Notes under the pieces: model-generated | Database searches by the model: none | The model's input: the letters and a program-made list of their open reading frames with translations, nothing else | Told to the model about the DNA's origin: nothing | Program-made: the position numbers and the translations under genes | Part shown: one piece after another, positions 557 through 46,547 of the stretch | Numbering within the stretch: position 1 is the stretch's first letter | Layout of the letters: every line of letters begins with the position of its first letter | Source of the DNA: Nemertoderma westbladi | Lineage: Eukaryota > Animalia > Xenacoelomorpha | Reading direction: 5' to 3' | DNA length: 64,000 nucleotides | Assembly: GCA_032718475.1 (NCBI GenBank) | Contig: JAUCBJ010000648.1 | Coordinates: forward strand, 62,001 to 126,000

Positions 557-643
557 CATATTCCTACTGAATTAGGAAATATGTTAAATAATACCATATT
601 CCTACTGAATTAGGAAATATGTTAAATAATACCATATTCCTAC
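557..643 (-). promoter_or_regulatory. Putative self-complementary primer-binding site of D, in three copies with a 38-bp period
   Basis: CATATTCCTAC on + at 557-567, 595-605 and 633-643; its reverse complement GTAGGAATATG lies at 1664-1674 inside the D LTR. Confidence 0.75.
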
Positions 644-2389
644 TGAAGCGAAGAGACGTACCTGATATCCTGCAATATCCTACTGTAAAGTTTGTGAATC
701 AAAACATAATCCGACCTTCTCACCAAAACAGTAAACTCTAAGTAAGCAAATCTATTGCAGTATCGGTCTCTTATAACCGGTGAGGCAGAAAACAGTCTAC
801 GAACAGACAAACTTCGATAAAACAAAATCCCGCGCAGCGAATCCTAAAATCGGGCTGACTCACTGACGGACTAAGGGCGCTCGTATACTTTGCCGCGGTG
901 TGATTTATATGTGGGTGAGAGATAGAGGCGCTAGCTAGGTGTCTAACTAGCGGGCAAAGTGCAGTACGGACAAAAATTATTTTATATATTTTGAGGTGTA
1001 AATAATTCCTAACGCATGTGTGTTTTGATTCTAACAGTCAAAATCAGTTTTAGATCCTTCATATATATAATTACTGGGTCCGGTGTACATTTTACAAATA
1101 TTCTAATTTTATAGCTTGTAGGTCCAATACTCACGAATGACAAGGCTCCTTCCCCTTTTGTGTATTTCCAGGACTCAAATTCAGGCATAAGGTTAATACT
1201 ACGCCCAGAATTCGGCAATTTAATTTACCAGGTCCCTAATACTAAGAAGAAATGTGTTAGTTTACTACAGTAGGCGTACAGTTACAAAATAGCTAGCCTG
1301 GTGTCCTATCTAGAATTTTGGTTGCCTAGGTGGGCACGGCAACTTCCTATCAGAATGTCGGCGGGGACACGGTAGATGTTAGTATCCCTAATAGCCTCAA
1401 TTTATATGCGCCTAGCAGTAAACTGCCCTACCGCCTGAACGGTACAATCCCAATTCAGGTAAAAACACAGTAACCCTTCCTGGCCTACAAGTTCTAATGC
1501 AAATGGACACCGTTGTACTACAAACGGCCACCGACGCACCTATACCTGGCAAATGAGTTAGGCGTACAGCTTGCTGCACCCTACTAATGTGTATGCCTTG
1601 TACTGGTGTGCCTGCGTTCTATCTGTGTACTAGTATCTCTCTGCCTGATCTCTTCCTCCCCCCGTAGGAATATGAAGGTCTACTGTGGGTTTTTCTGAAT
1701 TAAGACAGTACAGTCCCTAAATGTAATTTTTAGCGCACAGCGTGTCAGTACCTCTACCTTCGATCTTAGGTCTTACACTTAGGTAACGAGGCATCGAACG
1801 CTGTCTAACCTTTCAGGCGATGGGCGAATAACTAAGAATGGGTATTGCGGGTTGTCTCCTTCTACATTCCTCCGATGTTCCCGTCTATTGCCGCGGTCCG
1901 ATGTCTAGCCTGCCATCTGTCTCTCAGTTGTGTTCACCGTGGTGAAACATAGTAAAAGCAGATGTAACAAATACTTTCTAACTTTATTACAAATAAACAA
2001 TAACTAATATACAATAAATGTAACAAGACGTAGTAAGAAGTGAATGATTAGAAGATTAAGATAACTAATGAACAAATCGCACCCTTTTATAGCAAATTAG
2101 TGCTGCTAACAATCTAGATAAATCTCGATTGTTCTATGAGTTCTACTAGGTTTTTAAAGATAATCATTGGTCCAGCAAACACGTATCTTGCACGATATTG
2201 GTTACTATCTAATAACTGCAATCGCATTGGTTAATCTACCTTAAGCAGATAAAATTAAATCGTAGCGGTTAATTCAAATGAGTTGAAACTTAGCACAAAA
2301 AATAATTCACACTTGCTAGGATTAGAACTCGATACCTACTACACGATTTTCTAACGCATAACCGACTGTGCTAGGCTTGGGGTGAAACA
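644..2389 (-). repeat. LTR of element D (TG...CA)
   Basis: Homologous to B LTRs; ends ...CGCTTCA on minus at the position equivalent to the B LTR end; TATA (TTTTATA on +, 2085-2091). Confidence 0.75.
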
Positions 2390-5184
2390 GACTGCTGGGA
2401 GGGGGGAAAAAAAAATAAGAAAACCAGCAGGAAAACAATGTAAAACAGAAAGGGGAAAAGAGGGAAAAGGGAAGAAAAAAAGAAAAAATGTGAAAACATT
2501 AGACATATTGCTGAAATGATTTATTTTATAAGTAGATAAAAAAAGTATTGTTTTCATTTTTAAATAGGACATTATTTTAACTACTTCCATTGAAACCCCA
2601 GTCAAAAATGTTCATGCGTATCGCATGTGGGTCACGCATCTAATTCGCATGCAAATCGCATGGGAAAGTGTCGGGACCTTTAGAAGCGATACGCATGCGG
2701 ATATCATGCGAAGTACCCATGCGTATCGCACGTGTCTAGCATGCGATTCTCTTCAGTGTAGAATAAACCAATGGCCATATATGACCAAATAAATTAACCC
2801 TATCTGGTCCGGTCTATTTCACTACTCAATTGGCCCAGGGGGGGGGGGGGCAGAGGGGGGTCATTTTAGACATTTGTTTATATCTTGGCTCAAAAATTAT
2901 AATTTCAATGGTTTAAAGGTTTTCGAGGTCGCTGTTTACGATAAAACTTGTTAAAAAAATATTCTGGCAATGCAACCATCATTTTTAGTGCCATCTGGTG
3001 CTCCAGAATGAAAAGTACAAAGTAGCAAAAATTTCAAACTGTTAAATTTTGCCTTTGGTTTGATAAGTCTAAAGCTATACTGGTTTTCAAGGTCGCTGAT
3101 CTTGATACAACTCGTTAAAATCATTCGTGGGAATATGAATGCAACTATGATCGTCGGTGCTTGTCTGCTCTGGGACGAAAAATACAAGTAGCATAAAATT
3201 TCAAACGACAAAAATCGAATTTGATCGGATAATATGATATTGAGTGGCATATATGTGATCTACAGTAGCATCCTAAAAAACACCTTATGTCATAAAATCA
3301 GGTTGATATTTGGTAATGATTTTGGAATATCAAATTTGTGCTACTTGTATTTTTCGTGCTGCACATTGACACATCCAAAAATGCCGTAATTAACAAGGTA
3401 CGATATTTTTTAGTGTCATATTCGTGATCATGGATCAGCATCCCGAAAAACTCAAGGTGAAAATCAATTTGATTTCGTGGTGATATTTAATTATCATATT
3501 TTATTATCATAATTGAAAGACATTGTCGGACAATGTCAGAGAAAGTGAGTGGCACACACTGTCGGACAATATAACACAGGTGGTTCGAGTAAATTACGGC
3601 GAATAAAGATACAAAAAAACAAAGAAAGAAAAGATACAAGAAATGTTAAAGATATATGCTTTGATGTAATAACTTCAACGATAAACTATTACTATACATA
3701 ATGTAATTTTTCTAGAATAAAAAGAACATTTCCAGTAAACAGAAAACATTGCCGATAAAGTTTTTACATTTATTAAAAATTCAATTTCATTGATAAAAAT
3801 AATGAATCTATAAACAATGCAGGAGTGGGAAATAATCTGCGCTATAATAACTTTTAAGAAACGAGAATAAAGACACAGATATAAAAAAGAACAATAATAC
3901 CTCGTAATGGACATTGTAAGAACGTAGGCCATATTTTTTATAATTTATTTACTCCAACATTAATAAGCGCCAAATTTATAACATGGAAACGTAGACATAA
4001 TCGCCTCAACCATTAAGCAATGGAATGTCAGTGATTTAGAATCCCATCCCTCGGTGCCAGCACCCCCACATAGCGCCGCCAACCCATCCATCCATTGGTT
4101 GAGATCGGTATCGTCCTTAGCAACGAACAACCACTCAGGGCCGCCTTTTTAACATTTAAAGTTTATTTAACATATTAACAATCTTAATGATATTATTTCA
4201 TACAATAAGCAGGACAAAATAATCTCCACTCCAGTTAAAGTTTAACGGTATATACTATATATCCATCCATCTTACTCATCGCTGTCACTATCAAGTATTA
4301 TTAGTTGCATGGCCAATGGAATTTGGTCCTGGAAATGGCAGAGGTAAAGATAACGATGATTTACCACGTCTGGGTTGATGGTTCTCTTCACACGATAACA
4401 GCAAGGGTGGACCAATCAACTGATAGCTCCTGAAATGAGGTCGTCGATTACTCCGGATATCCTGGGTTTGAATTTCCTTCCGGAGTTGTTTTAATGAATA
4501 ACCATTAGCTTTCATGTCCCGACATAATAATTTAGTAAGGAAATTTAGTAAGGAAGGTATAGAAGTTATTGTCAATCATATTATTACTATGTATTATAAT
4601 TTCAGCTCTATAATATTCACCACCACCATATTTCACTTCATATGTATTAACTTTGCCAATTAAATCCCATTGAAAATTCCTAACTTCTCTCTCTAAGTCA
4701 ACCGCCCATATTGCTTTGTCATGCCGACAATATACAATTGCGTGTGTAATATCCATATCAATTGTTTAGAACATTTAGAACATCTATTTGAGATATTGCT
4801 GTTTTAATCCGTGAATAATAATCGGGTATAATAATAATCGCATAATAATGCAGTGATAATACAGTAATACAGTAATAATAAAGAATAGGGCCTAGTCTAC
4901 ATCAGATGTCATGATATATGATGCCTTGGGCTGAATTTTGAATAATAGAGAAGCTATTGAACCCCTAACCCTACAGCACCGGTAGGTATATTAAACAGCC
5001 TCTGCCTATTGCTCAGCCTCTGCCTATTGCTATAATAATAGGCTGATAATAGACCCCTAACAGCCTAAGGCAGGTATAGTATATAGATAGGCAGCGTCAC
5101 TGAAAGTACAATTTATAGTATTTAAATTTCCCTCTACTACCAGAGAACTCAATATTCTCACTGGATTTTACACTTACCTTAGCA

Positions 5185-5285
5185 GCTCCCTACCACGCAC
5201 CTTAACAAGCTACCACCGACCTTAGCACGCTACCACCGACCTTAGCACACTACCACCGACCTTAGCTTTTACCACGCACCTTAGG
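5185..5285. repeat. About 20-bp minisatellite (TACCACCGACCTTAGCACGC-like)
   Basis: About 5 degenerate copies visible. Confidence 0.7.
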
Positions 5286-5451
5286 CATTCCTACTCATGA
5301 CAGCATGAGCTACTGAACCACTTAAACAATGTTATACAAATAGATATAGTAAATGCAAATGAGGACTTAATGTAATCTTTATAGCAAATTAATTCGAACA
5401 AAATAAAATTTTGAAAATCCACGGCTTTATGGGGATATAATTCTATAGTCC

Positions 5452-6512: not shown

Positions 6513-6734
6513 TTATAACCGGTAACAACTGTCAGTAAATATTACTATCCCAAATATAACACCAATGGAATACTAAATATAGACGAAACTGCAAAATTTC
6601 ATCAATTTTTTTGGACCCGAAATAATTTTTCAGCTATACTTAGTATAAACAATTTATTCAACCATATAAATATATTTTAGAATACTAAATAGAAAAGTCG
6701 GACAAGTTGTATAGTTATCTCGTTCGATCCATTA

Positions 6735-7891
6735 CTAGATTCCATAGACTTCCTTAGCATTTAAATAGTCCAGATTGTCCTCATTCAATGCGGATTGGTT
6801 GATTATTCCAGCTCCGGTAACTTCTGATTGGTTGACATATATTGGGGATACTGTCTTACTCATGCATGCACGGTTATCTGATTGGTTGTTCATTGAGGAT
6901 TCCACTACTTGTGATTGGTTAACATAAAGTGAAGGCACCGATTGAGTGATTCCAGAAGAGCCATTAAATCGGTTGTTAATGAAAGGTGCATCATTATCAG
7001 CTGTGTTGGTATTATCTCGCCCTCTCCCCTCCACTACTGTGTTGGTATTCTCTCGCCCTCTCCCCTCCACTACTGTGTTGGTATTCTCTCGCCCTCTCCC
7101 CTCCACTACTGTGTTGGTATTCTCTTGTCCTTTCTCCTCCACTGTGTTGGTATTCTCTCGCCCTCTCCCCTCCACTACTGTGTTGGTATTCTCTCGCCCT
7201 CTCCCCTCCACTACTGTGTTGGTATTCTCTCGCCCTCTCCCCTCCACTACTGTGTTGCTATTCTCTTGTCCTTTCTCCTCCACTGTGTTGGTATTCTCTC
7301 GCCCTCTCCCCTCCACTACTGTGTTGGTATTCTCTCGCCCTCTCCCCTCCACTACTGTGTTGGTATTCTCCACAGTGATTGTGTTCTGGCAATTTGTATC
7401 AGTTTCTGTAGTTACCTTGTTTCTACCAACTTTAGATTCATCGATAGTATCATAGGGATGCTCTTCATTTATGATCTGATCATCTCGACTACTGGAGGTA
7501 AGCGGAGTAAGATTGACAGGTGACTGATTGGTTGATGGGTGATTTACAGACCTCTCATTGGCTGTTTGATTTATAGTTATGCCATTGGAAGGTGGAATTA
7601 GATAGCTCTCATTGGCTGGTTGGTTTCGAAAACTCTCAGTGGCTAATGACCGATTGTTTGAAGCTCGAATGGCTGGTATCTCTAATTCTTCGTAGGGGTG
7701 ACTCGGGATGTTAGCTGGACCATCCAGTCCATATACAACTGTGTCATCGTAGACAGGACTACGAGGTTTTCTATTCCGATATCTTTTGAGTAAAATGATT
7801 GCCAATACGACTATAACAATCACTGCAAATCCACATCCAACAACACCTCCAATGATTGCAGCAGAGGAATTGGAATTTGTAGGAATTTCAT
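6735..7891 (-). CDS. Last coding exon of an Ig/FN3 type-I membrane receptor: transmembrane helix and cytoplasmic tail
   Basis: Acceptor AG at 7893-7892; reads DEIPTNSNSSAAIIGGVVGCGFAVIVIVVLAIILLKRYRNRK..., stop at 6735; AATAAA on minus at about 6652-6657; phase matches the upstream exon. Confidence 0.85.
7000..7376 (-). repeat. In-frame 39/36-bp coding minisatellite (ENTNTVVEGRGR / ENTNTVEEKGQ)
   Basis: About 9-10 units in the cytoplasmic tail. Confidence 0.95.
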
Positions 7892-8951
7892 CTAAAAATA
7901 TAACAATAATAAAATTTTGAGTGAATAATGAAGAATAAGTGAACTTGAATCGATTTTGGGAATGAAGATACGGTTGGCTACATCACATTCAAAATATAAT
8001 AAAAGCGGTTCTGTATGTCAGAAAGCGTGCAGGATATATTGGGATATTTGTATGAGATATATATATATTTATTATTTACCTTATTTAATCCAGGCTCCAA
8101 AGGAGCAACCCATAAAAAACAATAATAATAATATAATATAAAATATAGTGCGATATAAATAATAATAAAGATTCACATGTTAACCCAACACACAAGATGT
8201 GAAACATCTTTAATAACAGTTAATGTCGACAGTCGTCAGGAAGTGCGTCCTTCTGATCGTTTGAACATAACCTGCTAGGATGGTGTTCTTCAGTATGTAC
8301 CATCTGATGCAGAGGATCGTCGATCCGGAATTCCTACGGATAGGACCTACCTAAGGGGAATGCATGAACTAAGCAGCATTGAGTGGGTTGTCTAGTCAAT
8401 GTCTAGGATTTTTCATAGATTAAATATAAAACTCAATGATCGATTATTTAGAGAAGCAGTAGAACCAGTAACTCCTAAATGAATGGCCAAATGGACTCTA
8501 AAGGTCACTAAATATCTGGACTTATAAAAGAATGCTAAGCCGCGGTCATTGAGTCAAGTACAATAGATAAATATCCAGCCAGCCCCATACAGCATCGACG
8601 GTGTCTCAATAGTCAACCAAACTTGAAACTAATATAGAACCGCCTCCGCTTTACAGGACATTGCTTTTGCCTTGATAACTATCCGGTGGAGAACATGCCT
8701 TTGCGTTATCTCTGCATTTTGAAGAGAATAAGCATGGTGGACAGTTGATGACTTTTTTGAGATGTCTCTCAAAGTACAAGAATCAAACATAGGCTTATTT
8801 AGGTTGCAGTGTTCAATCGATTCAGTCAGATATATATCAACAACAATACACAAAATTTAGAAGGCAGAAATTAATTAAAATTCTGACTCTAAATTAATAC
8901 AATGCAGTTGTTCTATAGTGTATATAAATTAATAAAAAAAAATTGTCTCAC

Positions 8952-9581
8952 CATATAAACGAAATGGTTCTCCAACAACTGGAATAGTTGGATCGCGGCA
9001 ACCGAACTTATTACAGGCCACCACTGAGAAGTAATGCCGTTCATTGGGTAATCCTGAGACGATTATAGTTGAATCAGTTGTATTTCCTGTTGTTATAGTA
9101 ACAATATTTCCTTTACTGTTGTTGTACTCAACTCTAAACCATTGATTAGATCCACCATTGAATCCTGGTGTCCAACTAACTATAACTCTGGAATTATCAA
9201 CTGCTTCTACTTTAACTCCAGTCGGCATATGTGGAGGTCCTATAGGTTCCAACCTAACGTCACATTCAACCTCAGTATTACTGCTAGGGATACCATTTCC
9301 AACCCTCCCAAAGTAGGTTAGATTAATATCATCTCTCGTTACATCATATATAGTTAGATTTAAAACAGCTGTACTTTTATACTCAGAGTTTTCCACTACA
9401 AATGATGTTCTATATTTATCACCATCGGGCAGCTTCTCATTTAAGTTAGCTCCACTAATCCAATAGACACTCGATTCAATAACAGCTGGATAACTTTCCA
9501 TTGTACATGTTAGAGTAACGACATTCCCAACATCCCCTATAACAGTTCGCTCTGTGTCTTTGTGAATCCAAATGGGTTTGT
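8952..9581 (-). CDS. Internal exon encoding an Ig-like domain and a fibronectin type III domain
   Basis: Acceptor TTTTCTTAG ending at 9582, donor GTGAG starting at 8951; KPIW...VTLTCTMESYP...VYW...LNLTIYDVTRDD, then GPPHMPTGV...VSWTPGFNGGSNQWFRVEY...YFSVVACNKFG (nephrin-like Ig-FN3 junction). Confidence 0.85.
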
Positions 9582-9762
9582 CTAAGAAAATAGAAAAACA
9601 ATTTTATTCTTGAATTGTTACTTTTTCGCTCGAATGTACCCAAAATCGAGAAATAATTACTACTTTTTTCCCTAGGGAAAAAAGAAAGCCATATGATTGC
9701 ATTGATTTTACTTTTAACCAGCGAAGTAAAATAAAATAATTTATAATATATTTTTGGTGGAG

Positions 9763-9962
9763 TCGCAATAGCTTTTGAGAGTGTGAATGTATTTTGCTCA
9801 AATTACTTGCAAACCTTTTCTACTTTGATGCTCTTTCATATAGAAAATTAAAAATAATTAACCACAATTATTTTTAATTTTCTATATTAAAGAGCATCAA
9901 AGTAGAAAAGGTTTGTATGTAATTTGAGCAAAATCCATTCACACTCTCAAAAGCTATTGCGA
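9763..9962. repeat. 200-bp near-perfect inverted repeat (hairpin/MITE-like)
   Basis: TCGCAATAGCTTTTGAGAGTGTGAATG...CATTCACACTCTCAAAAGCTATTGCGA; arms about 97 bp with a short spacer. Confidence 0.9.
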
Positions 9963-10282
9963 ATTTAGTGTCTGCAAGTCGAACCCCAAAACGGAAGTCA
10001 ATATCCAATATTGGTTTATGTTGTTAAGCGGCTCTCTAGATACGTAATAAATATTCTAGAACACTAAATTATTTAACATTGAGTAAGGCAGCATCAGGAG
10101 TTGGAGTGTACAATAATTTGAATCAAATACTTACACTAATTACATTAACACTAATTACAATCAACTCATCACTACTTGGCAACGGGTAATTACATTTATA
10201 GGACATAGGCAAGGCAGGCACTATTAGTGTAAAGTGACTAATAAGCCAGCTTGCTTATTGTTTATCTATATAACTATAGGCA

Positions 10283-12494: not shown

Positions 12495-12573
12495 GGGATT
12501 CATTTAAACCTAGATTGTATTGAATCCCGCTAATAAAGGGATTTATTTAAACCTAGGTTGTATTGAATCCCGT
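12495..12573. repeat. Two monomers of the 43-bp satellite
   Basis: GGGATTCATTTAAACCTAGATTGTATTGAATCCC, same unit as 54769-64000. Confidence 0.95.
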
Positions 12574-12582
12574 TTTTCTACA

Positions 12583-13980
12583 CAATAATCCTAAGGGATT
12601 TTCTGGGACTGTCAGACTTTTGTGATTTGCATGCGCCGCTACGGTAGCTATTCAATAAATGGAGGGCTAAGGTGCCGGTAGGCGGTGGGCACATCGGGGG
12701 GTTGGGCGACTAAGGGAGAGCGGAGGATTCAAAAGCGGGCAACGCTGGCGGGGGGTCACCGTTGCGGTCGGGCGTTTCGCACTGTAGCATGCAGACCATT
12801 CGCCGGTACAGTAATTAGGGGGCTGATGATCCAGGTTTTGTCTCTATTTAGTATTAGGGGGGCAAGAATCGGGTTAGTTAGGAAGCCAAGATGTACCCGG
12901 GAGAGGCCTGCACGTATTACAGTGTGAAGTGTGGAGTACGAAGAGTGAATTGCACAACTTTGGGCAGTGAACTGCATAATCGCGAGCTGTGATTGCTGAC
13001 GCTGATTGGTGTGTTACTGAAGTGTGCCTATGATTACGAATGCTTAGGTAGGCAGGCGCCTTTTCCCTTTGATTGATTTCTATTTCTTAGTTTACAACAA
13101 TTAATTACTGATTAGGTCAAAGTAATACGGTATTTTAGGCTATTACTAGCGAAACCTAGTGTGTAATAAATTAGAATTGCGCATTCTGGAACTCTTAGTA
13201 ATTAGTACGCCGTTACATATTTGTGACTGTAATTAGTTAGTGAAATTAAGAATTAGTACGCAGCATAGCGGAGAATAGCTAAGGTAATAATTAGGGTACT
13301 GTAAACTATTCACGCTGAGCGGTTATTTGCATTAACGGGCAATAAGCTAGATCGCATTATTCAGTACGCACAACACACTAGTAATTTGCTGGCCTAAAGC
13401 CAGCTGCAGGCAAGTTTAGACCCAGAGCGGTATTACCCACGTAGAGATAAAATACTGTACCATTTTTGATTATTTTAAATATTCTCGCATTCATACATTC
13501 CGTTAGGGAACCCCCAGTATTCGCGATTAGAAAAGGCGTAGGCATTATCGTATTTCAATAGTAAAATTAGGCATAAGAATACTCTGAGTGCAAAGCCTCT
13601 CGCACTCGTCTTAAGTAAGCTTAGGGAGCTGACTCGGGTTTATTGTTTTGGTTATTCCCGCGTGGCTCATAGATTCGAACAGTTAGCTCTCTGTCGAGCG
13701 ATCGGCAGAGAAAGGAACAAGCGATTTGCAGGAGCCGTGTAAATTTAGTAAAATATATTAGCGGACGGCAGATTAGCGCCATCCAACGGTAAGTAGCGGT
13801 TTTGTATTTAGCAGCCCTACAATTTAGTAATAGCACGCTCCTGATCGCCTTTACTTAACAGTAGAGCAGTCTTTGTGTCTTATTGGTTAGGCGGGAACTC
13901 ATTAGGTTGGCAGAGAAGTATACGGGTATTTGTCTGTTCAACAGTTCTGCTGTTAGTATAGGGGTCGCGGTTGTTTATCA
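12583..13980 (+). repeat. 5' LTR of A, missing its first roughly 775 bp
   Basis: Nearly identical to 53375-54768; ends TTTATCA. Confidence 0.92.
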
Positions 13981-13990
13981 GTAATACGTG
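13981..13990 (+). promoter_or_regulatory. Putative self-complementary primer-binding site of A
   Basis: GTAATACGTG directly after the LTR; reverse complement CACGTATTAC at 12911-12920 and 53703-53712. Confidence 0.7.
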
Positions 13991-15217
13991 ATTTGTTTGC
14001 TGTAGGCTGTAGCGTACAGTAAATAGAGTATTCTTAGGCTGTTAGGTAGGATTACTGTTACTGCCGTATCAGTAATACGTGTATATTGTTTTGCTGTACT
14101 GCATACAGTAAATACGAATTAGATTACTGTATTAGGCACTGTACTGCGTACAGTAAGACAGATAGTGTATTCTTAGGCTGTTAATTTAGATTACTGTATT
14201 CATTGGTCGCATGCAGTAGTACTGTAGTACAGTAGTACATTAGGCTGATTGCTGTTACTGCGTACGGTAGAAAGGACATTTGTTTTGCTGTACCACACAC
14301 AGTATCATTAGGCTGTTAGGTTGGTGTACTGTTTTACTTACTGTACTGCATACAGTGGATGTACGGTAGTGCGTTTTACTAATTGCGAATACAGCAGTTC
14401 CTTAGGCCTTAGGGCGAATAGTAATTAGTAAGTTTTTGAAAATTTTAGCTAGGTTTGCGAGAATTCAGTTTCGGTCAAAATCATTTGTAAAATTCTAGAG
14501 TTTTGTACCGGTATGTTAGGTAACCGCTTAGTTTATTTTATACCATCTGGAGATACATGGCAAGACGGAACTTCTGAGTTTGGGGTTCGTGTGGGTCTGC
14601 GGGTTCGGTTTGCAATCAGCGAAGAGCCTGAATCTTTGGACGCGGACGTGGAATCTCACAGCAAACAAGGTTAGTTGTTCTGTTGGCACCATTGTGTTTG
14701 TGGAAGCAGTAAAAAATTATCGGTTGTTTAACTGCGAAGCTGAACTCAATTTATTAGTTAGGATAGTTAGGTTTAGCCGGCCATGGTTTTTTGAATCGCT
14801 CAAGTTAGAGAGAGAGTTAGAGAGAGTCGCAGCCCGAAGATGTAGCCACGCGCTAGTGGATACATATAATATTTGAAATTAAAATTACATTGATTAGAGC
14901 TATATATGTAAAATTAGAAATATTCGGGTGGCAAATTTATTTTGAATATTTTGTATTAGATTCAGAAATTATTTTGTGTCATACCGGTATTTAATTGCTA
15001 TATAATAGCTATATAATAATATTTTTGTTTAAATATTGTGCTAGTATTTGCTATAACTATACCCCATTAAATTCACAATATTGCATTGCGAATTTATTTT
15101 GACATTTTGGACCAACTGATTATTAGACAAATAATTTGACCGTATTTTCGGTTAAATTATAATTATATCTCGAAATTTTGCGAGATTTTTGCCGGAAGGC
15201 AAAACATTATTTAGACT

Positions 15218-18200
15218 ATGAGTGTCTCAGACAAGGAGGCACTAGAGGACAGCTATGAGACGGCGGCTGGACCGCCGACTGACGATAGCGTCAATATTAC
15301 TGTTGACGACAATGCCGACTATGATGACGCAGCGAGCGACGCTGACGTAAGTGAACAGGAGGACGAGACAGTGACTAGTGAGGAAGAACAACAACCTCAA
15401 GTAATAGTATTAGGATCCCCTACCGCTACTGTAAGGAAGGACTGCACAGCAGCCCGGACAGAGGTGAGTGATAGGGATGGTAGTGTAGCAGAAGCGAGAG
15501 CCCGGAGCCCGGTTTCCAGACCTGTGGGTATGGTAAGTGCCGTGGTCCCAACGGCTGTAAGGAGTACCCGTAGTTCCCGAAATAATCCTTCAAGTCCACC
15601 GAGTGTGAGTCAGGTAAGCGAGAGAGAACTAGACATCGCGATAAAGAAGAAACTTCGCGTGCACGCCGGACATATAACTCGGACGACGGACAAGGTAAGG
15701 AAGATGTTAGCAGACTCAGCGAACATCGAAAGGGTAGGGTTAGTAGAGATTAGAAGGGGATATAACTCAGCGTTATTCAAGCAGACAGAGGAGCTTGCAG
15801 TCCTAGCGAAGAGAGCAGTGGAGTCTCAGTCGAGCGACGTGGCGACGAGGATTTACGACAGGGTTTTAGCAGCCTTGCTAGAGCACCGCGAGTTATCGGA
15901 GCGATTTCGACGAGTTAGGACGGAGAACTGGCTGCTATGGGCATCACAAGCGCAGGCGACTCAGGTGAGTGATGCAGAGTTGAGAGACTTAGTGGAGCGA
16001 GAAGAGATCCAAGATAAAGAAGAGCGCCGTTATCAGAGGGAAGTTACTAGCTGGCTGATGCAGAATGGAGTGGTGGTACCGGGCCAGGTGCTACCGACGA
16101 CGGAGAACATTCAACAGAGGACGTTGACTCCACCCGACGACGCATCCAGAGACAGTGGCGATTCCCAGGTTAGTCACGCGCGAGGGAAGGTTATATGTGC
16201 TAGATCCCTTGTTTCTCACAACTCGGCGGATGAGAGAAGACGCCGACTGGACGAAAAACAGGTGGAAGTTTTGCGTGCATCGGAAGCACGGAAGGAAGCC
16301 GAGCGGGAAAGGGAGCGAACACGTAAGTTAGACGCAAAGTTGTGGGAGTTGGAAGAGAAAGGTAAGCGTGAGCGAGCGGAACGCGAACAGAAGGAATGCG
16401 AACTCCAGCTCGAACGCGAACTCAAGGAACGCGAACTCCAGCTCGAACGCGAACGTAAGGAACGCGAACTCGAACTTGAACGCGAACAGAAAGAACGCGA
16501 ACTCCAGCTCGAACGCGAACAGAAGAAACGCGAACTCGAACTTGAATGCGAACACAAGGAACGCGAACTCGAGATCAAGAAAGAGCGACAAGCGTTGTAT
16601 GAAGAAAAGGCGCGTGTGGAAGAAGAGAGCGCAGCGAGACGAGCGAGGGAAGAAGAAGAACGTAAACTGGCGCAGTTGGAAAGTGCGAGATTAAGTTTAG
16701 AGAGCGAAGAACGGACTAGGAAGGCGAACGAAATCGCCGAGAAGGGGATGCGAATGATCGAAGAATGTGGGGCGAGTGTAGGGACCGAGTTGCGAGAACT
16801 GTTCGCACTGCAAAAGGCCGAACAGGAAGCGAGAACTCCGACTATACGCGAGTCGATGACGACCAGAATTCCTATACCCGGTCCAGCTATTACGAGTACG
16901 CGGATCGCTAAACCATTCTCTACATATCGCACGCCAGTTGGTATTAGTGCTTCACCTATCGCGCAGAATCCACAGCATCAGAACACCGCACCACTATACA
17001 CCGAACGCGACAACGGAGAGTTTAGAGGAGAAACTCCGACAGGACGAGTATTAGGCGAACCGAACCCGCGGGTTTGGAATACGCGGACGGAGCGCCGAAC
17101 CAGTGCGACGGAGAACTTCCGGGTTAAACCGGAAGAGGGATCATATGAGAGACAGCGGATTACTCAGATAGAGCCGACTATACAACAGAACCCTAGCCAG
17201 GAATTTATTACGAGGGATGAGTTGCGTGCTAGTTTAGCGCAAGCTATATCGCCGCACATCCAACCTATAACGGACATGCTTAGCAACCTACGGTTAAAGG
17301 AAGCAGCCCAGGTAAGGAGTAATTCTAATCCTAGCAGGCCTGAGTTAGATAAAGTCCAACCTAGTCAACGAGTACGCATATCAGAGGAGACTATACCACA
17401 TAGACCTCAGGTAAGGACGCCTGTCCCGAATATCCATAATCCCAATTTCGAAAATTCGGCCAAGAAATTTATTGAAGATGCTTGGGTCAGGGCCTCGGCG
17501 CGCAAACCATCGCGAGCGCTAAGGACTGACACCGAGTCAAGTGATGAAGAGGAAGACATGAGACGTCAGAAGTCCCGAAACTATAAGGAAAGAAGGACGG
17601 ATGCGGAGCAGGTAAGTTTGAACCACCGGGAAAGGACCAGACTTAACAACCCTGCAGAACTAAACCATTTGTTAACCCGGAACGACGCAACCCTTAGGGA
17701 CATAGGTAAGTTTGCTGCTAGGCAAGGACTGCCGACGCAACAACCCCAGAAGTTTATGGGCAACCACAAGCACTGGAGGATGTTTAAAACCTATGTCGAC
17801 GAACAGCTAACCAACAGCACCTTTACTCCCAACAAAGAAGTTCAACTATTTGCTTCAGATGCTCCATCGAGAACCTAGAGCCATTGCTGACAACTTCGTC
17901 GGCAATGAAAGAGCATTTGAGTTAATAATGAAGATGCTTAGCGACATCTACGGGAATAAAACCAAGATGGCACAGTCGATAGTGGAAGACTTGGGTAAGG
18001 GCGGAAGGATTACAACTCCGTTAGAGCCGTTGAACTTAGCGAACGCTATTTCGAACGCATTGGACATCTTGAAGACGGTGAATCTACCTCATCATGGTGA
18101 TCATGCCGAAGTTTTGAAGAGCGTAATAAGACGTTTAAACATGCGTTATCGACAGAAATGGCGCAAATTAGAGAATAAGTTGGAGGGCCAAGGTAAAGTA

Positions 18201-20444
18201 TTGACACTTCAGCATATTCATGACATGATAGCCACAGACGCAGTAGCAGAGATGAAATCAAACTTCTCAGAGGAGAATATGAGAGAGTCTAAACCTGTTA
18301 CCGGTAAGTCTATGGTTAGTTTTGATGATGACAGGACCACTGTGACTTATAACTCAGTAGACAGATATAATTCGAGTACCCCAGCCTTTAGATCAGACTC
18401 GCGAGTATGGTCAGGTGAGCGGTTAGATAGACCTAGGTTAAAGCAACAGGAGTTGCCGGATGGATTTGTAGGTTGCCAATACTGTTTACTAAAGGAGGTA
18501 AGATCTGACGACCATAAGTTAGATAGTTGCAGACGGTTCAAAGAATTAAATTCGGAACAGAGAAGAGTTCAAGTGCGGATGTTGGACACCTGTTGGGCAT
18601 GTCTTGCGCCAGGTCATGTACGGCGGCAGTGCCCGAACAGCAAGGATGGATGCATGGAATGCGGCAGACTACATCACAAGTTGCTACATGCGGATTTCCA
18701 TACCCCAACGGACCGTTACTTACAGCGAAATCCTCACAGGAAGGGGAGCAAAGAACCCGTATCGATAAGAAGGAATACGTACACTGGCATCCAGGACGAT
18801 GGTTACCAACCAGGTTCGTCGGATGAGGATGGCGAGTTGAGCGCGAGAGAAGTGACCTGCCAAGGTTTCACCGCGGATAGTTCATCGACCAGCGCGCGGA
18901 CGTATTTATCATCGGCCACGTCGGAAATATTCAGCGTGATTCCGGTGAAACTTACTGGCGATAAGGGATCGAAGAGAATAGATGTAATGTTGGACACTGC
19001 GTCCACATTATCTTATATCGACGAGGAAGTGGCGAGAGCTGTTTCTAGCTTCCAGGATGCCGAGGAGATCCAAATAGAGTTGAAGTCTATGCACGGGGTA
19101 GGTGACCTCAAGGGACACAGGATATCTGTAGAACTAGATTCCCTACTTCCGAGAGACCAACACACTCGACAAGAACGGAAAGCTTTGCCATTGGACGGAT
19201 TTAAGTGTCTGGCTATGAAAGGATTCGGCAGGCAGTTAGGTAAGGTGCCGCCGATGAGTCCCATAGCACAGGAGTATTTTGACAAGCTCAGGATACCGAG
19301 ACATCAGGTAGGTTATAGGAATGTTTCTATGTTGATTGGTGCAGAACAGCTGATCGCACACCAGATATGGGAAACGAGACCAGCTGAGCCGCATGTCAAT
19401 GGACCACATGCCCATAGGACTATACTAGGTTGGTATACACGAGTACCCATGTCTTATGAGTTTACAGGTGGCGACAAGCCAATGGACAGATACGACGAAT
19501 TACAGCCTATAACTCAACCACCGTTGGTAGAACCACCAGACATAGACGAGTTTAGGAGGACCTGTGTTGACCACTATAGTGACTTTAGCGAGTCGGACGA
19601 GGAGTTGATTCCCGATAATGTTAGGTTGTCGGAACCACTTCATAACGACCGGACAGATAGTGAACCCGAGGACTACTGTTATCAGACCCGTGGGTCTGGT
19701 TCAGCAGCCCACGCTACTTATCTGAGTAACGTTTTGACTTATACCAATATAGTGGAGGTTCAAGTGGCTAAATATCGAGACCTAGACATTTTCCAATACA
19801 GTGAGGAGGAGCTACAGAAGGAATTGATACGCCAGGACCTCGAGACAGGAGCCAGAACTGTCGAATGGCTGGATAGGGACGCAATGGAACCCGGTGGATA
19901 TGACCTAGCCATGTCTACTGATGAGAAACGGTCGCTGGAGATGATGGAAGACACCATACGTCTGCTACCGACTGGACATTTTGAAGTTGGAATGTTGTGG
20001 CGTCGACAACCACCTAAGTTGGAGAACAACTACAACTTAGCCTTGAAAAGTTTGAACGGAGTAAGGGCTCGGTTGTTAAGGAATCCAGTCATTAGGGAGA
20101 AGTATTGCGCTCAGATCAACAACTATTTCGCCAAGGGATTTGCTGGGAAGGTAGAGGACCCTGACTCAGTGACAGACCAGACTTATTACCTTCCACACCA
20201 CTATGTGACTCACCCTGACAAGCCAGACAAAGTCCGAGTAGTCAACGACTGCGCAGCAGTCTATAGAGGTATGTCCCTGAATTCAGAGTTGATGGATGGT
20301 CCCAACCTGAATAATTATTTGATTGGAATACTGTTACGTTTTAGACAGCGGCGATTCGCATTTACTTGTGACATCGAGGCGATGTTCCACCAGGTAAGAG
20401 CCTGTAAGGCAGACCAGGATAGCCTTCGCTTTCTCTGGTATGAG
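15218..20444 (+). pseudogene. Element A gag-pol, 5' part (Gag coiled coil, capsid-like region, zinc knuckles, protease, RT N-terminus)
   Basis: ORFs 15218-17878 and 17850-20564 are separated by a frameshift near 17830 (KFNYLLQML continues in the second frame, compare B REKFNYLLQTL); CQYC...H...C, CWACLAPGHVRRQC, CMECGRLHHKLLH; VMLDTAS; YLPHHYV...KVRVVNDC; DIEAMFHQV. Confidence 0.93.
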
Positions 20445-22338
20445 TATAGAATTATATTCTCTAAATGCCGTGGATTTTCAAAATTTTATTTTATTCGAAT
20501 TAACTTTGTTATAAAGATTACATTAAGTCCTCATTTGTATTTACTATATCTATTTGTACGATGATTATTCAAGTGGTTCAGTAGCTCAGTCGGTAAAGCG
20601 TTGGAAATTATATGTAGTAGGTATTGAGTTCGAATCCTAGTAGGTGCGAATTATTTTTTGTGCAGAATTTCAACTCATTTAAATTAACCACTACAAATTA
20701 AATTGCATTTGCCTGTACCTAGATTAACCAATGGGACTGTAGTTATTAGATAGTAACCAATGTCGTGCAAGTTATATATTCGCTGGACCAATAGTTATCT
20801 TTAAAAACCTATTAGAACTCATAGAACAATCGAGAATTTTCTCGATTGATTGCAGCACAAATTTGCTATAAAAGGTGCGATTTCGTTCATTAGTTAACAC
20901 AGTTGCAGACCGTTATTCTCACTTACATCCATTAGTTATTTCAGATTACATTGTATACATTATTATAATTGTTGGTTATCTGTAATAAAGTCAGAATTAT
21001 CGCTATATCTGCCCCTTTTCTATCATGTTTTACCAAGGTGAACTTAACTGAGGGACAGGATGGCAGGCTAAACATCGGGCCACAGCAATGAACGGGAACA
21101 TCTGAGGAATGTAGACAGGAGACAACCCGCAATATCATTCTTAGTTATTCGCCCATCGCCTGAAAGGTTAGACAGCGTTCAATGCCTTGCTATCTAAGTG
21201 TAAGACCAAAGATCGAAGGTAGAGGTAGTGACACGCTGTGCGCCAAAAATTACATCTAGGGACCGTACTGTCTTAATTCAGAGAAAACCCACAGTAGACC
21301 TTCATATTCCTACGGGGGAGAGGAGAGGAGCTCAGGCAGAGATACTAGTACACAGATAGGATGCAGGCACACAGGTACAAGGCATACACATTGGTAGGGT
21401 GCAGCAAACTGTACGCCTAACTCTTGCTAAGTACAGGTGCGTCTGTGACTGTTTGTAGTACAACGGTGTCCATTGCATTAGAACTTGTAGGCCAGAAGGG
21501 TTGCTGTGTTTTACCTGAATTAGGATTGTACCGTTCAGGTGGTAGGGCAGTTTACAACTAGGCGCAAATAAATTGAGGCTATTTAGGGATACTAACATCT
21601 ACCCTGTCCCCGCCAACATTCTGTTAGGAAGTTGCTGTGCCCATCTAAGCAACTAAAATTCTAGATAAGAACACCAGGCTAGCTATTAGTAACTGTACGC
21701 CTACTGTAGTAAACTAACACATTTCTTCTTAGTATTAGGGACCTGGTAAATTAAGTTGCCGAATTCTGGGCGTAGTATTAACCTTATGCCTGAATTTGAG
21801 TCCTGGAAATACACAAAAGGGGAAGGAGCCTTATCATTCGTGAGTATTGGACCTACAAGTTACAAAATTAGACAATTTGCAAAATGTACACCGGACCCAG
21901 TAATTATATATATGAAGGAGCAAAACTGACTTTGACTGTTTAGAATCAAGACACACGCGCGTTAGAAATTATTTACACCTCAAAATATATAAAATAATTT
22001 TTATCCATACTGTGCTTTGCCCGCTAGTTAGACATTTCTGCACCTAGCTAGCGTCTCTTTCGCCCAACCATATAAATCACACCGCGGCAAAGTATACGAG
22101 CGCCCTTAGTCCGTCAGTGAGTCAGCCTGATTTAGGATTCGCTGTGCGGGATTTTGTTTTATCGAAGTTTGTCCGTTCGTAGACTGTTTTCTGCCTCACC
22201 GGTTATAAGAGACTGATACTGCAATTTATATTCGCTTACTTGGAGTTTACTGTTTTGGTGAGAAGGTCGGATTAAGATTTGATTCACAAACTTTACAGTA
22301 GGATATTGCAGGGTATTTTGTTACTGTCTCTTCGAATA
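20445..22338 (+). repeat. 5' LTR of B (1894 bp, TA...TA)
   Basis: Matches 44649-46542; several CCAAT boxes, TATAAAA 20867-20873, AATAAA about 21567. Confidence 0.95.
20575..20659 (+). other. tRNA-like Pol III cassette inside the B LTR (also at 44779-44863 and in D at about 2297-2375 minus)
   Basis: A box TAGCTCAGTCGG 20582-20593, B box GAGTTCGAATCC 20626-20637, T6 at 20654-20659; acceptor and anticodon stems do not pair well. Confidence 0.6.
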
Positions 22339-22360
22339 GTAGGAATATGAAGGTCTACTG
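22339..22360 (+). promoter_or_regulatory. Putative self-complementary primer-binding site of B
   Basis: GTAGGAATATGAAGGTCTACTG is the exact 22-nt reverse complement of 21292-21313. Confidence 0.8.
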
Positions 22361-23165
22361 AACTACGGTTCGGTAGGACTAAAGTTATTTGAAAAAAAAA
22401 AAAAAATTTGTATTTTGAGGTAAAAGTTTATATTTGATTAGCTAAGTGCTAATTTTTTGAAATAAAATTTTGCTTTGAACCGCGTGTAAAATATTTTGGA
22501 ATTGAATACCGGTGTTTAAAAGGGTTTAAATACCATATTGTACCGGTACAAAATTTTCGTAAAAAGTAAAACCAAACTCTTTGTTTTTCAGGATTCAGAA
22601 CTCATTTCTAGACTGTAACGGGAGCAAGACCGTGTTTCACGAGTTTGGGAGATAGATAACCCAACAACTTTGGTTGGGAAAATTCGCACTTCGTCCGCAA
22701 CGCTGGAAACAGAAAGGTTCACGTCCGGTTTGTATCTGGGAATCTGTTTTTCTGGAGAATTATTGGAGTGGGTGAGTTTGAAAAGTTGCATTAATCAGTT
22801 AGGCATTACCGTATTAGTTAAAATTATTGTGGGTTCCACTGTCTCAAGTATTTATGCATTCCGTACGATTTCTTTGTTTATTGCTGAATTAGTCCGTAAT
22901 TATTTGTGTTTGATTTATATTTTGATAACGTATATCGTTATCCGATTTATTTGTTATAAAATTGGCCGTTAGGCTAATTTTATTATATACTTATACCGTG
23001 ACATTTATTTGCTGTAAAATTGGCCGTTTAGGCTAATTTTATCCATTTGCTATAAAATCGGCCGGTAGGCTAATTTTATATGACTGTAATTAGTACCGTT
23101 TTGATATAAATACGGTAAATTCGATACTTTGACACTCACATTTTACTTGAATTACAACTACCAAA

Positions 23166-26100
23166 ATGAGTGACAAACAAGAATATACGAAGAATACACC
23201 TACCGACTATGACTCATGTGACGCGGATAAGTCAGCAGTGGAAGAACTACAGGGGAAGACTCGCGAGCCTACCGAACCTACACCGTGTGCGTCACCAGTA
23301 CATCCAACGGGAGTACCGGATGCCGTAGTACGAGGCGACGGCAGGACCGAGGACTTTCTAACTGTTCCGCAACCTAGATACAGGGAAACGGACATGGTAA
23401 GTTCAGTAGGAAGCCAGGAGAGCGTAGTTAGAAGCGTCGGAGGATACATGGCGCATATTACCAGGAGTATTGGAGAAGGCCAACGCATATTAGACGAGTT
23501 GACCGCTCCGATGTCTCGGTTTGAGTTCTACACCCTCCAGGTTAGAGTATAAAGTAGAGTACATAAGTCCGTGGATAACCTTATCAGTCTACAAGATCTA
23601 GCTAGACAGAGACAGGACGTGGATACTCAACTTAGAATCCTCGAGAAACTGATGATCGCTAGAGAGAAACTGATTCAGTTTAAGTCAACCATTAGACAGA
23701 TACAACAGGAGCAAGCGGACCAGTTATTAGGTGAGTCGGTTTCCGACGAGTTGTTACAGCCCGAGGAAGAACAGGAACTGTACCGACTGGATGGACAATT
23801 GAAACACCTGACGGATTACTTACGCATGTGCGGCGAGGACGTCGGAGATTGGGAAACCGTGCCGGAAGCTATGAGGGAAACTTCACTCGCACAAATCGAG
23901 CTGGCACCAGGAATACTGGATCAATCGTTGGTAAGTATTCGTAGCGAAATTGGCGAGGGAAGTATGGTCACGTCAGAAGTTGCTCGACAACAGCAACAGT
24001 TCTACAGACAGCAACACGAAATGGAAGAACAAACTCAACTGCTAATGATACAAGCAGCGGTAGAGGAAGAGAAAATACGTGTTGCGAATGTAGCGAGAAT
24101 CTCTCATCTGCAGGAACAAGCTGAACTAGAAGCAGCCGAAATGGAAAGGTTAGAGTTAGACATTGCCCAACAAGCGGCGGCAGCCGAGTTAGCGCAACAA
24201 ACGGCAGCAGCCGAGTTAGAGCGACAAACGGCAGCGGCAGCGGCAGCGGCAGCGTCAGAGTTAGAGCGACAAACGGCAGCGGCGGAGTTAGAGAGAAAAA
24301 GGTTAGTTTCAGAAGCCAGAGTCGAGATGAAGACACGGCAAATAAAGGCTCAATCAGCTATACGACAAGCGGAGTTCGAGGCGCAACAACAACAAACGGA
24401 ACAACGAGAGAAGGAAGTTAAACTTCGTTTCGAACTCGAGAAGAAGGCGAGAGAATTAGCCAACGCCAAGGAGGATCTGGATCTTAAAGCCCGCGATAGA
24501 TCGATGAGATCTCGAGACGGACACGATTTGGACCAGATAGAGGTAAGGCACCGCCAAATTCAGGAACGAATGAAGGAAGGCTCGATAGGAGCACTTGGAC
24601 GAGAACGACAATTAGTTAAAGACTTATGTCAACGATTCCCTCAAGTAACTCCTATGTTTGCACCGATTACGACTAAGGAACCTGTTTCGATTGCTGGTAG
24701 TAGTAATATTTCTCCTATCCATGGTGCGACGGAACACAGGTTTGTTATTCCGGACAAGTTTACACCGCCAAGAGCAACGTCGTCGCCTATTCTGAAAATC
24801 AAGGTAAGTAACCCACCGATTACAGATCGTAGTAGTTTGTTGACCGGACCTGCACTACTGACGACTAAACAGGTGAGTCCACCTTCGACACCTAAACCCG
24901 TTACGCACTACACGTACCCAATGACGTTTAGGCCTACAAGGCCTTTAGATTCAAACGCTGTCACTCGACCACCGTTTAATCAGTTTACATCGCAATCTAC
25001 GACTTCGAGGAAGACCTGCGAGCCTACCGAACAACGGAGACCAGTGGAAACACGACCGTTTAACCAGTTTACATCGCAATCTACGACTTCGAGGAAGACT
25101 TGTGAGCCTACCGAACAACGGAGACCAGTGGACGATGTTCCGAAACGGAATGTTCGAATTCGTACGACGCAGCGGACACGAACACGTCAGCCACCGTATC
25201 CAGGTGATAGTAGTACTTCGAGTGAATCGGATTACCTGAAACGCGAGGTATTTAGAACAGGAGTGGCCGACGAATGTAAACGTGAGCATTCAGACAATTC
25301 CTTTATCGATAATCCTCCACAAAATACACCAACACAGAAAGCGTTACAACCAACAGACGCGATTAGTACGCAACAATTCGCCGATCTAATGCGACCAGTT
25401 GTAGACAAGTTGGCCCAGATAGAGGAACGTTTAGAGGAAACTCAAACTGATAGTTCGCGAGGTACCGAGTTCGAACACTCTAGACACCCGAAGCAGCAAA
25501 GAAAACAACCCTCGAGAGACACCTCGTATCAAAGAAAAGCGCCAAGACGAGAGAACATCAACTCGATTGCCAACCAAGGACGCGAAACTTTGAACGTGGC
25601 CGAGGAGATAGCGAAATTCGCAGCCAGACAAGGACTACCGGTGCAACAACCACCTAAGTTTTCTGGTAACTCAAAACATTGGCACACTTTTGTGGACTAC
25701 ATCGAAACACAAATAGCAGCGTGCGCCTTTTCATCAAGGGAAAAGTTCAACTACCTGCTACAAACGCTGACAGGAGAACCGAAACGTCTAGCGGAGACCT
25801 TTGTCGGTGTACCAGACGCCTTCGAACTAGCGTATGATCGCTTAACTTCGATTTACGGAGGCACCGTAAGTATGGCTAAGTCAGTGATAGAAGAACTCTG
25901 TAAAGGGGGGGCTATAACAAAACCCGTTGACTTACTGAAATTAGCTGACGAGATTAAGAACGCCATTACTACACTACGCTCGATTGGACAACTTGACTAC
26001 GCGAACACTCCGACAGTCCTATTGAAAATAATAGGAAGACTACACCATCGACTTCGTCGGGAGTGGCGAAAGATAGAATATCAGCGAGAAGAGAGAGGCG

Positions 26101-26363
26101 GATTCTTGAAGTTGGAAGACGTCTACTTACTGATATCCAGAGATGCAGTAGTCGAGACGCGTTCGAAATACACGGACCAACATATCGTAGCAGAAGGAAT
26201 CACCTTACCATCCTCGAACCGACAAAAACCCCAAACAACATCCACCAAGACGGCCACTTACGCCACATCAACAGAAACCCGACAATTTTCAGACGGTAAT
26301 AGAGTATCCGCACCCATTGGAACCAAACAGACCCGACAGCAACTGAGCACAGACTTTAGCGGT
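23166..26363 (+). pseudogene. Element B gag, 5' part
   Basis: ORFs 23166 and 23571 share a frame with one TAA at 23550-23552; KFAARQGLPVQQPPKFSGN shared with A; interrupted by C at ...DFSG. Confidence 0.9.
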
Positions 26364-27605
26364 TGTAAAAGCTTCTGTGGGATATAACTGGCCCTTTTGC
26401 TTCGCAATCCAGTTTCCCCCCAGGCGCTGGAATACTCTAAAAGGCTCTCTAACTATATATATATTCCCCTCGCCCGCAAGGTACCGTTATAGGTGTTTTA
26501 ACGGACATAAAAGTCATTCTTCTATATACGTGCTTTGGAGGACATGGTAAGGCAAAAAACCCGCAATGCACCAAATACCCTTACACAGCTTAGCCTGGAT
26601 GATTCAGATTGCGACATCTAACAGCTGGTTGCTGACATGGAAACGGCCATTGGACACATGGTTCTTTGTTTAGCTTAAGCCAATCAGAGCGATTTTTTCT
26701 GTCGATGTGGAGATATTCGGCCGATCATACTAGGAGTGTTCAGTCGTACTGTTTTGGTGATACTGTTGTGTTGTTGCTATCTAGGCCAGGAACACCGGCT
26801 CTAGAGTCAACTCGTTTTCATACTTTAGAAGAAACATTAGTAGGCTTAAGATTATAGAGCGTATAACTGTTATCAACTCACATATCGGTCCAGTCAAACA
26901 GTGTTAACATCTTAACCTACCGTCTTAATGCTATTTACTGTTGTGTTTTGATTGAATATTATTTGGAGAACATTTATAAAGAACCCAAATTTCCCAATTT
27001 TCTTGATACACTACAGGTTAGAGAGAAGGGTTATATATAGCGATTGCGACTTATATTATTGTGTTTGTAGTGAATTTAATGCTATTTGATAAGCACTACA
27101 TGGGTTCGTTGCTGTTCTCTTTATATATGATAAAATTCATTGACGGTCGGCAAATTAGTGAGCAGTATTGTGTGTTACCGGTAGTGTGCATGATTGTGAC
27201 TGATAACTAAGCATTTCCTAAAGAATGTGCCTCATACGTAAATCATAAGCCTTACCGACTTACCGTTGTGATTAGTATAAGTCATATCTCTGTTTACCTA
27301 GATAGAGCGCCACGTCCTAAAGGAACTGTTAATATTTCCCGAAAGTGAATAATATTGGTCAGAAATTATTTATTAACGATCAATCGAATAATACAGTAAG
27401 CTTACACTGCAATAATAATCTAAGCCCTCCGAATCCAGTCTCCCGGGTATATCCAGCGGGTGAATGGACGCGCACTAGGCTGGCTTCTGCTAATGTTGTG
27501 TTTATTGGTATTAAATATTTGTCATCTTCTAAAGTCTATTTATAAACCAAAAGACATATAAATTTTGGCAGGTTAAACTGCTAAAGGTCTTCAAAAGCGC
27601 GTACA
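26364..27605 (+). repeat. 5' LTR of C (1242 bp, TGT...ACA)
   Basis: Matches 37676-38917 with about 8 substitutions. Confidence 0.96.
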
Positions 27606-27616
27606 ATAACAGTTAT
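27606..27616 (+). promoter_or_regulatory. Putative self-complementary primer-binding site of C
   Basis: ATAACAGTTAT directly after the LTR; reverse complement ATAACTGTTAT at 26863-26873. Confidence 0.7.
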
Positions 27617-46542: not shown

Positions 46543-46547
46543 ATGAG

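Follow-up and report, generated by a model that had tools for sequence, protein, structure and literature searches.

Probable self-priming of BEL/Pao retrotransposons in Nemertoderma westbladi, with sequence hints of an internal primer site

The 64,000-nucleotide (nt) stretch of Nemertoderma westbladi DNA analysed here (assembly GCA_032718475.1, contig JAUCBJ010000648.1, positions 62,001 to 126,000; hereafter the window, in whose own numbering all positions are given) holds a nest of BEL/Pao long terminal repeat (LTR) retrotransposons belonging to three families, A, B/D and C. [quoted passage not shown] This complementarity is real and not a product of chance, and it points to probable self-priming in BEL/Pao, with hints in the sequence that the primer site lies inside the element RNA rather than at its 5' end. 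That the elements prime themselves in one form or another appears likely; the more specific reading favoured here, in which an internal site is used and two element RNAs take part, is given a probability of about 0.5.

All four pairs named in the original prediction, one each in A, B, C and D, proved to be exact reverse complements at the positions predicted, with 730-1060 nt between LTR site and PBS (Table 1). In A, B and C, whose LTR ends were fixed independently, by target-site duplications (TSDs) in B and C and by the point where the two LTRs diverge in A (13980/54768), the match begins with the base immediately following the LTR; in D the end is placed by homology only. Similarly, the proposed lack of TGG after the 5' LTR was borne out in A, B and C, with none in 50 bases, but not in D, which has TGG at +9 within a local duplication. 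D is a minus-strand relative of B (87% identity) extending beyond the window edge, and the four elements thus count as three independent families rather than four cases. The LTRs of A, B and C are, as predicted, unalignable (best blastn E 0.35), and from family to family the self-complementary PBS changes in step with the LTR site; when a PBS was compared with the LTR of a different family, only 4-7 nt matched. The PBSs of A and B are, however, less different than had been proposed (both GTA...TG). Since the reverse transcriptase (RT) fragments of A and B are also 71% identical, C is the most independent case; its gag-protease shares 21-26% identity with those of A and B.

The likelihood of chance complementarity was estimated from dinucleotide-shuffled LTRs. 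A match at offset 0 of the length observed arose in 8/4000 shuffles for A (10 nt), 4/4000 for B (11-nt core) and 4/4000 for C (11 nt). Any 10-mer at an offset of 0-5 was more frequent (44/4000, 48/4000 and 59/4000 shuffles for A, B and C, respectively), and a single such match, at about 1.1-1.5%, could be accidental. Yet the frequency at offset 0 is 0.1-0.2% in each of three families, and the match in B runs to 22 nt, so that chance is a very unlikely explanation. By a self-priming criterion that asks for a complement of 10 nt or more beginning 0-5 nt past the 5' LTR, the elements A, B, C and D show 10, 22, 11 and 11 nt, all at offset 0. Matches of the same length were found at 6/2931 internal positions in A, 0/2931 in B and 4/2931 in C.

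A host tRNA fragment or other small host RNA could instead prime, the LTR match being secondary, and half-tRNA primers do exist in Ty1/copia lineages (excerpts of PMC6317226). Three different fragments would then each need chance copies inside the cognate LTR, and neither Rfam nor ARAGORN found a tRNA in the window; the two Rfam matches obtained were at chance level, below the gathering score and outside the elements. The comparison of PBSs with tRNAs, proposed as a check in the original prediction, was completed for 3' ends in a metazoan table, and gave no match: the six PBS/site 7-mers and the TGG motif of D are absent from the tRNA 3' 12-mer table (excerpted from PMC13524379; 3' ends only). 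Priming by a host RNA is regarded as very improbable.

The 3' end of an LTR is the point where minus-strand synthesis starts. Since the LTR end is set in this way, and since the polypurine tract (PPT) of all three families directly abuts the start of the 3' LTR, the primer should end against the first base after the LTR. A complement ending at the LTR boundary in three families, in different letters and without a tRNA site, is thus best read as a self-primer. Alternatively, the two segments could form a structural or regulatory helix, serving to loop about 1 kb out of a leader intron or to bring two RNAs together as a dimer, while the primer is something else. Consistent with such a role, the candidate 1425-nt intron of B described below contains both segments, the site of C is a near-palindrome and the leaders are rich in hairpins and ACCGGT palindromes. 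This nevertheless does not account for a complement that ends at the first base after the LTR in 3/3 families, and it leaves the elements without a primer site although their LTR pairs are 98.8-99.4% identical; a purely structural helix is considered unlikely.

The assignment to BEL/Pao, likewise part of the original prediction, was confirmed by Peptidase_A17 (E 3e-38) and DUF5641 in A and by Pfam DUF1759 in B and C, the DUF1759 match in A scoring below cut-off. The top protein homologues carry the same Pfam families. The domain order protease-RT-RNase H-integrase (PR-RT-RH-IN) is present between the LTRs, as are TSDs and a PPT flush with the 3' LTR, with the particularities that the LTRs of B have TA..TA termini and that A is without a TSD. 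In protein searches no database protein exceeded about 40% identity over pol, the matches being general BEL/Pao proteins; the nearest named relatives are proteins from Tubulanus, Lineus, Glandiceps, Amphiura and Antedon. Scans of viral contigs and of metagenome contigs confirmed no related loci. In a FastTree analysis of the fetched proteins, a set containing no labelled clade references, A and B formed a long branch, separated from each other by 0.68 and from every fetched protein by 1.5 or more, and were assigned to none of the named clades (Sinbad/Sailor, Pao, Dan, Flow, Tas, Suzu and BEL). In an integrase tree A was grouped with five other long branches, possibly as a result of attraction among them.

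The elements share with the Belpaoviridae (Semotivirus) of the International Committee on Taxonomy of Viruses (ICTV) a Gag with DUF1759, Peptidase_A17, DUF5641, the order PR-RT-RH-IN, LTRs, 5-bp TSDs and a PPT. In the ICTV profile, this family has an 18-nt PBS complementary to tRNA-Arg or -Gly, its LTRs measure 0.2-1.2 kb and its genomes 4.2-10 kb, and its replication is described as tRNA-primed and poorly understood (PMC8742986). In contrast, A, B and C have no 18-nt PBS matching a tRNA 3' end, their LTRs measure 1.2-2.2 kb and the elements about 12-17 kb, and they carry extra open reading frames (ORFs). A full-text literature search, with subscription papers and Repbase reports outside its scope, found no report of BEL/Pao self-priming. 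The terms 'PBS' and 'tRNA' are absent from the main text of the BEL/Pao papers PMC3118150, PMC554778 and PMC6238403, and no BEL/Pao self-priming is reported in excerpts of PMC3601003 and PMC6317226.

Self-priming has been reported for the Tf1/sushi group and predicted for Tcn1 and for the TAR lineage of Ty1/copia (excerpts of PMC6317226). Like A, B and C, the Ty3/gypsy elements concerned (Tf1, Tf2, Tj1 and Tosmo, Tf1/sushi, Tcn1) have no tRNA PBS, about 11 nt after the 5' LTR complement their own LTR, and there is adjacent secondary structure, as predicted here (excerpts of bioRxiv 10.1101/2022.12.06.519325, PMC4600332 and PMC6317226). Unlike the Tf1 group, the present elements encode BEL/Pao proteins, no chromodomain match was seen in Pfam, which together speak against membership of the Tf1/sushi lineage, and the site is 730-1060 nt from the PBS. 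In the TAR lineage (Houba, Osr-1) the prediction was based on pairing over 10 bp or more that begins within 0-5 bp of the LTR end (excerpts of PMC6317226), a feature that A, B, C and D all possess; TAR elements belong to Ty1/copia and live in plant hosts, and the predictions made for them were likewise drawn from sequence alone.

Folding predicts a hairpin adjoining the PBS in A, B, C and D (Table 1). The C-UACG-G loop of the B and D hairpins is of an unusually stable type. An alternative partner for the hairpin's 5' arm exists in B, C and D, namely the bases immediately upstream of the LTR site, so that the pairing extends 5' of the core, to 22 nt in B, where the extension has been made perfect, to 11+7 in D, and also in C. 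The primer strand would therefore not be confined to 11 nt, and the extended pairing may be a selected switch or the trace of a primer strand copied past 11 nt. In folds reaching from site to PBS, B formed the long-range helix with probability 1.0, A with 0.38-0.91 and C with 0-0.41, varying with the upstream boundary. The Tf1 'pretzel', with its two R/U5 duplexes (R, the repeated region of the LTR; U5 and U3, the unique 5' and 3' regions), differs from the local hairpin after the PBS found here, except for a partial stem in B and D: on comparison with the three-duplex model, one flanking stem was found there, between the bases after the site and the LTR end, and it is weak in A and C. Another feature of the leaders (14507-29720) is an excess of the palindrome ACCGGT, with two copies in A, two in B and 11 in C as against 0.04-0.27 expected from base shuffles; it is a candidate dimerisation or packaging motif.

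The original prediction of a self-priming BEL/Pao lineage was thus upheld in that the elements are BEL/Pao, lack a PBS for a tRNA 3' end, have a self-complementary PBS and are best read as self-priming, but not in its plain Tf1 form. In Tf1 the primer consists of the first bases of the RNA; here, promoter and poly(A) motifs, a contig with a candidate splice joint and the LTR differences point to a site hundreds of bases inside the RNA. A likely TATA box with CCAAT boxes upstream of it lies 614 nt (A) and 425 nt (B) before the site, that of B being kept in D. AATAAA is found upstream of the site at -257 (A) and -308 (B), the latter kept in D within a poorly conserved stretch, and downstream at +250 (A) and +275 (B). 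A contig of the public sequencing run X4 joins 21164 to 22590, which corresponds to a canonical intron of 1425 nt with its donor 125 nt upstream of B's site and with the best acceptor in B's leader; removal of site, U5 and PBS by this candidate intron would fit, if weakly, a spliced gag mRNA. The two LTRs of B differ at 22 positions, of which a single one falls within nt 1-565 and the other 21 within nt 592-1894 (P 0.004 by a binomial test assuming uniform spread), so that nearly all are downstream of the AATAAA shared with D; with D as reference, eight could be assigned to the 5' LTR and nine to the 3' LTR, and five were unresolved. The LTRs of B differ by 1.2% vs about 0.6% for those of A, though B, being nested in A, is younger. 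This pattern fits a U3 copied from one RNA end and a U5 copied from two templates. On account of the motifs, the X4 contig and the difference pattern, R is probably located at about nt 453-565 of B's LTR and the site (nt 848-869) in a 1.3-kb U5.

Plain cis self-priming as in Tf1 would require a genome-length RNA from a TATA-less start at or just before the site, ending at the downstream AATAAA, with the upstream promoter serving spliced mRNA only. The core of 10-11 nt is like that of Tf1, A and B do have AATAAA 250-275 nt downstream of the site, an extra stem is possible in B and D between the bases after the site and the LTR end, and Tf2 is governed by alternative start sites according to excerpts of PMC5341516. 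However, the 120 nt preceding the site contain no TATA in either A or B, the downstream AATAAA of B is not kept in D, and the extra stem is weak in A and C. Moreover, six of B's LTR differences fall in nt 592-860, which would mostly be U3 and expected to be identical. The Tf1 form is therefore held to be rather unlikely.

Several observations nevertheless weigh against an internal site. The AATAAA motifs 250-275 nt downstream in A and B would place the site in R, and C has neither AATAAA nor a clear promoter. The X4 joint is represented by one contig with 22 letters on the short side, below the 31-letter bar, in a run listed as 'DNA?'; it is absent from runs X1, X3 and X5, and no canonical joint was seen for A or C among the 15 joints listed out of 18. 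The boundary in the LTR differences of B was chosen post hoc in a single element, where LTR-LTR conversion fits too, and the LTR pair of C shows no significant asymmetry. Regarding the pairing itself, the core of C yields only -10.1 kcal/mol, its helix probability falls to 0 when 30 more upstream bases are folded, and B and D share LTR site and core PBS, so that no covariation signal arises between them. A further X4 joint, 12912-12987 in A, was rejected as a splice, as it has no splice signals and looks like a diverged copy. The X4/X1 depth ratio was 0.06-0.13 upstream of the donor and 0.004-0.019 downstream, with X3/X1 at 0.54-1.24; contig depth cannot rank element parts, and these ratios were not used as evidence.

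In the reading with an internal site and two RNAs, the 10-11-nt LTR segment would pair with the first bases after the 5' LTR, the primer:PBS helix would stack on the hairpin predicted directly after it, and a cut at the 3' end of the segment, probably by the element's RNase H in analogy with Tf1, would give the priming 3'-OH. The segment would probably be located in the 1.3-kb U5, past the poly(A) site and several hundred bases from the cap. Given a site in U5, strong-stop DNA primed by a cut in the template itself would stop before reaching R, and a strong-stop without R would call for participation of a second element RNA, either as a sacrificed primer donor (trans priming) or as template for one extra jump. 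We infer the RNA ends, the pairing in vivo, the cutting enzyme and the second RNA from these relations. Trans priming in particular, where a packaged element RNA (or a separately spliced LTR transcript) cut at the internal U5 site would prime its partner, is put forward tentatively, as a possibility with the odds somewhat against it.

The primer could also be an element transcript whose 3' end falls at the site, through cleavage or through 3'-5' trimming as far as the duplex, or a separately spliced LTR transcript. Each family has a good splice acceptor upstream of the core, at a distance of 59 nt in A, 21 nt in B and 34 nt in C (ranks 2/102, 11/81 and 2/36), although the score is crude and was applied post hoc, and the B ORF at 40785-42353 resembles 3'-5' exonucleases (Atlas 0.93, 24/30 hits). 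Conversely, there is no AATAAA within 250 nt upstream of the site, no GT..AG junction inside the LTR pairs better than the unspliced site, and the exonuclease-like ORF has no homologue in A or C. This origin of the primer is deemed distinctly unlikely. A PBS pairing only across an exon-exon junction in the LTR was not found, the unspliced site pairing fully, and exonuclease trimming as a general mechanism was rejected, A and C being without such an ORF.

Proof of self-priming exists for one Ty3/gypsy element, and predictions for that element's relatives and for a single Ty1/copia lineage. With a self-complementary PBS in BEL/Pao, tRNA-independent priming would reach the third LTR superfamily, which would matter for the question of whether priming by tRNA is the ancestral state. 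Should the primer site lie in U5, the standard scheme of strong-stop and first jump fails with one RNA, and such elements would offer a test of why particles carry two genomes. Trans priming, if true, would constitute a mode distinct from both tRNA priming and the 5'-end self-primer of Tf1, and would result in LTR pairs with differences in U5 and none in U3. In practical terms, LTR annotation based on the PBS misses such elements, and dating by LTR-LTR divergence would overstate their age, as illustrated by B, which is nested in A and yet has LTRs differing about twice as much.

Table 1. Positions of element features in the window
Feature	Position	Strand	Remarks
A 5' LTR	12575..13980	+	about 770 bp missing from 5' end; adjoins 43-bp satellite
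A LTR site	12911..12920	+	LTR nt 1104-1113; 3' LTR copy at 53703-53712
A PBS	13981..13990	+	10 nt, first base after LTR
A hairpin	13992..14027	+	predicted, -17.8 kcal/mol, 13-15 bp
A second, diverged copy of LTR end, PBS and hairpin	14066..14118	+	PBS 10-mer 14072-14081 unchanged
A gag, protease, first part of RT	15215..20444	+	two overlapping frames; interrupted by B
A remaining RT, RNase H, integrase	46543..49664	+	YMDD, RNase H and integrase acidic motifs present
A PPT (GGAGCGG)	52593..52599	+	flush with LTR
A full 3' LTR	52600..54768	+	2169 bp, TG..CA; TATA 53089, AATAAA 53446 and 53953
B 5' LTR	20445..22338	+	TA..TA, TSD ATGAG; TATA 20867; AATAAA 20984 (conserved in D) and 21567 (not conserved in D)
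B candidate GT..AG intron	21167..22591	+	removes site, U5 and PBS; joint in one X4 contig
B LTR site	21292..21313	+	22 nt; 11-nt core 21303-21313 pairs in D too
B PBS	22339..22360	+	22 nt; second half overlaps hairpin 5' arm
B hairpin	22352..22380	+	predicted, 12 bp, C-UACG-G loop
B PPT (GGAGCGG)	44642-44648	+	flush with LTR
B 3' LTR	44649..46542	+	22 substitutions relative to B 5' LTR
C 5' LTR	26364..27605	+	TG..CA, TSD GCGGT
C LTR site	26863..26873	+	near-palindromic 11-mer
C PBS	27606..27616	+	11 nt
C hairpin	27620..27642	+	predicted, 9 bp
C PPT (GGAGCGG)	37669-37675	+	flush with LTR
C 3' LTR	37676..38917	+	TSD GCGGT
D LTR (B family)	644..5447	-	split by 2.9-kb insertion at 2374-5287
D LTR site	1664..1685	-	identical to 22-mer of B
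D PBS, three tandem copies	633-643, 595-605, 557-567	-	within 530..643
D hairpin	557-530	-	predicted, 12 bp, C-UACG-G loop; last PBS copy runs straight into stem

With regard to the nest as a whole, A spans 12575-54768, B (20445-46542) is inserted into the RT of A, and C (26364-38917) into the gag of B. B and C are non-autonomous, most of pol being missing, and among the elements of the nest RT, RNase H and integrase motifs are found in A only. The single long ORF of C (29796-34514) fuses gag-protease to a short piece from just after RNase H by an in-frame internal deletion. The B and C families occur at very high depth in the DNA runs X1 and X3.

The additional ORFs differ between the elements. 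In B, an ORF after the truncated RT (40785-43892, one in-frame stop) contains a 3'-5' exonuclease-like domain followed by zinc-knuckle-like repeats. The exonuclease-like assignment was made from Atlas (0.93, PF01612 set) and motif inspection only; no relevant Pfam match up to E 10, no PDB sequence match and no homologue were obtained, and a single-sequence structure model was unusable (pLDDT, the model's confidence score, 31). The bdelloid LTR retrotransposons Juno and Vesta carry a DEDDy 3'-5' exonuclease as ORF3 (excerpts of PMC5408684) and resemble B in having an extra exonuclease-like ORF after pol, which here is confined to the non-autonomous B and recognised from Atlas features and motif inspection. 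C has a zinc-knuckle ORF (36550-37155) related to that of B (28% identity, E 2e-11), and A a 356-codon ORF after integrase (50361-51431) without a relevant Pfam match.

A tRNA-like stretch in the U3 of B (20574-20655), negative by ARAGORN and Rfam, contains a T run and motifs that we take to be A-box- and B-box-like; the 2.9-kb insertion in D landed in this stretch of U3. The insertion (2914 bp, 2374-5287) has TG..CA ends on the minus strand and no long internal repeat, and is possibly a solo LTR or another element. In the B LTRs, TA termini replace TG..CA with a clean 5-bp TSD, and the D LTR starts with TA and ends with CA. A 43-bp satellite array of about 95% identity (54769-64000 and 12495-12574) is split by A; at the left junction with the satellite the first 770 bp of the LTR are lost, and the TSD of A has gone with this 5' truncation. 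Outside the nest, the minus strand at 6735-9603 holds exons of a host receptor-like gene whose product combines Ig-like with fibronectin type III domains (Pfam fn3 E 2e-7) and also has a transmembrane segment and a cytoplasmic tail of repetitive sequence.

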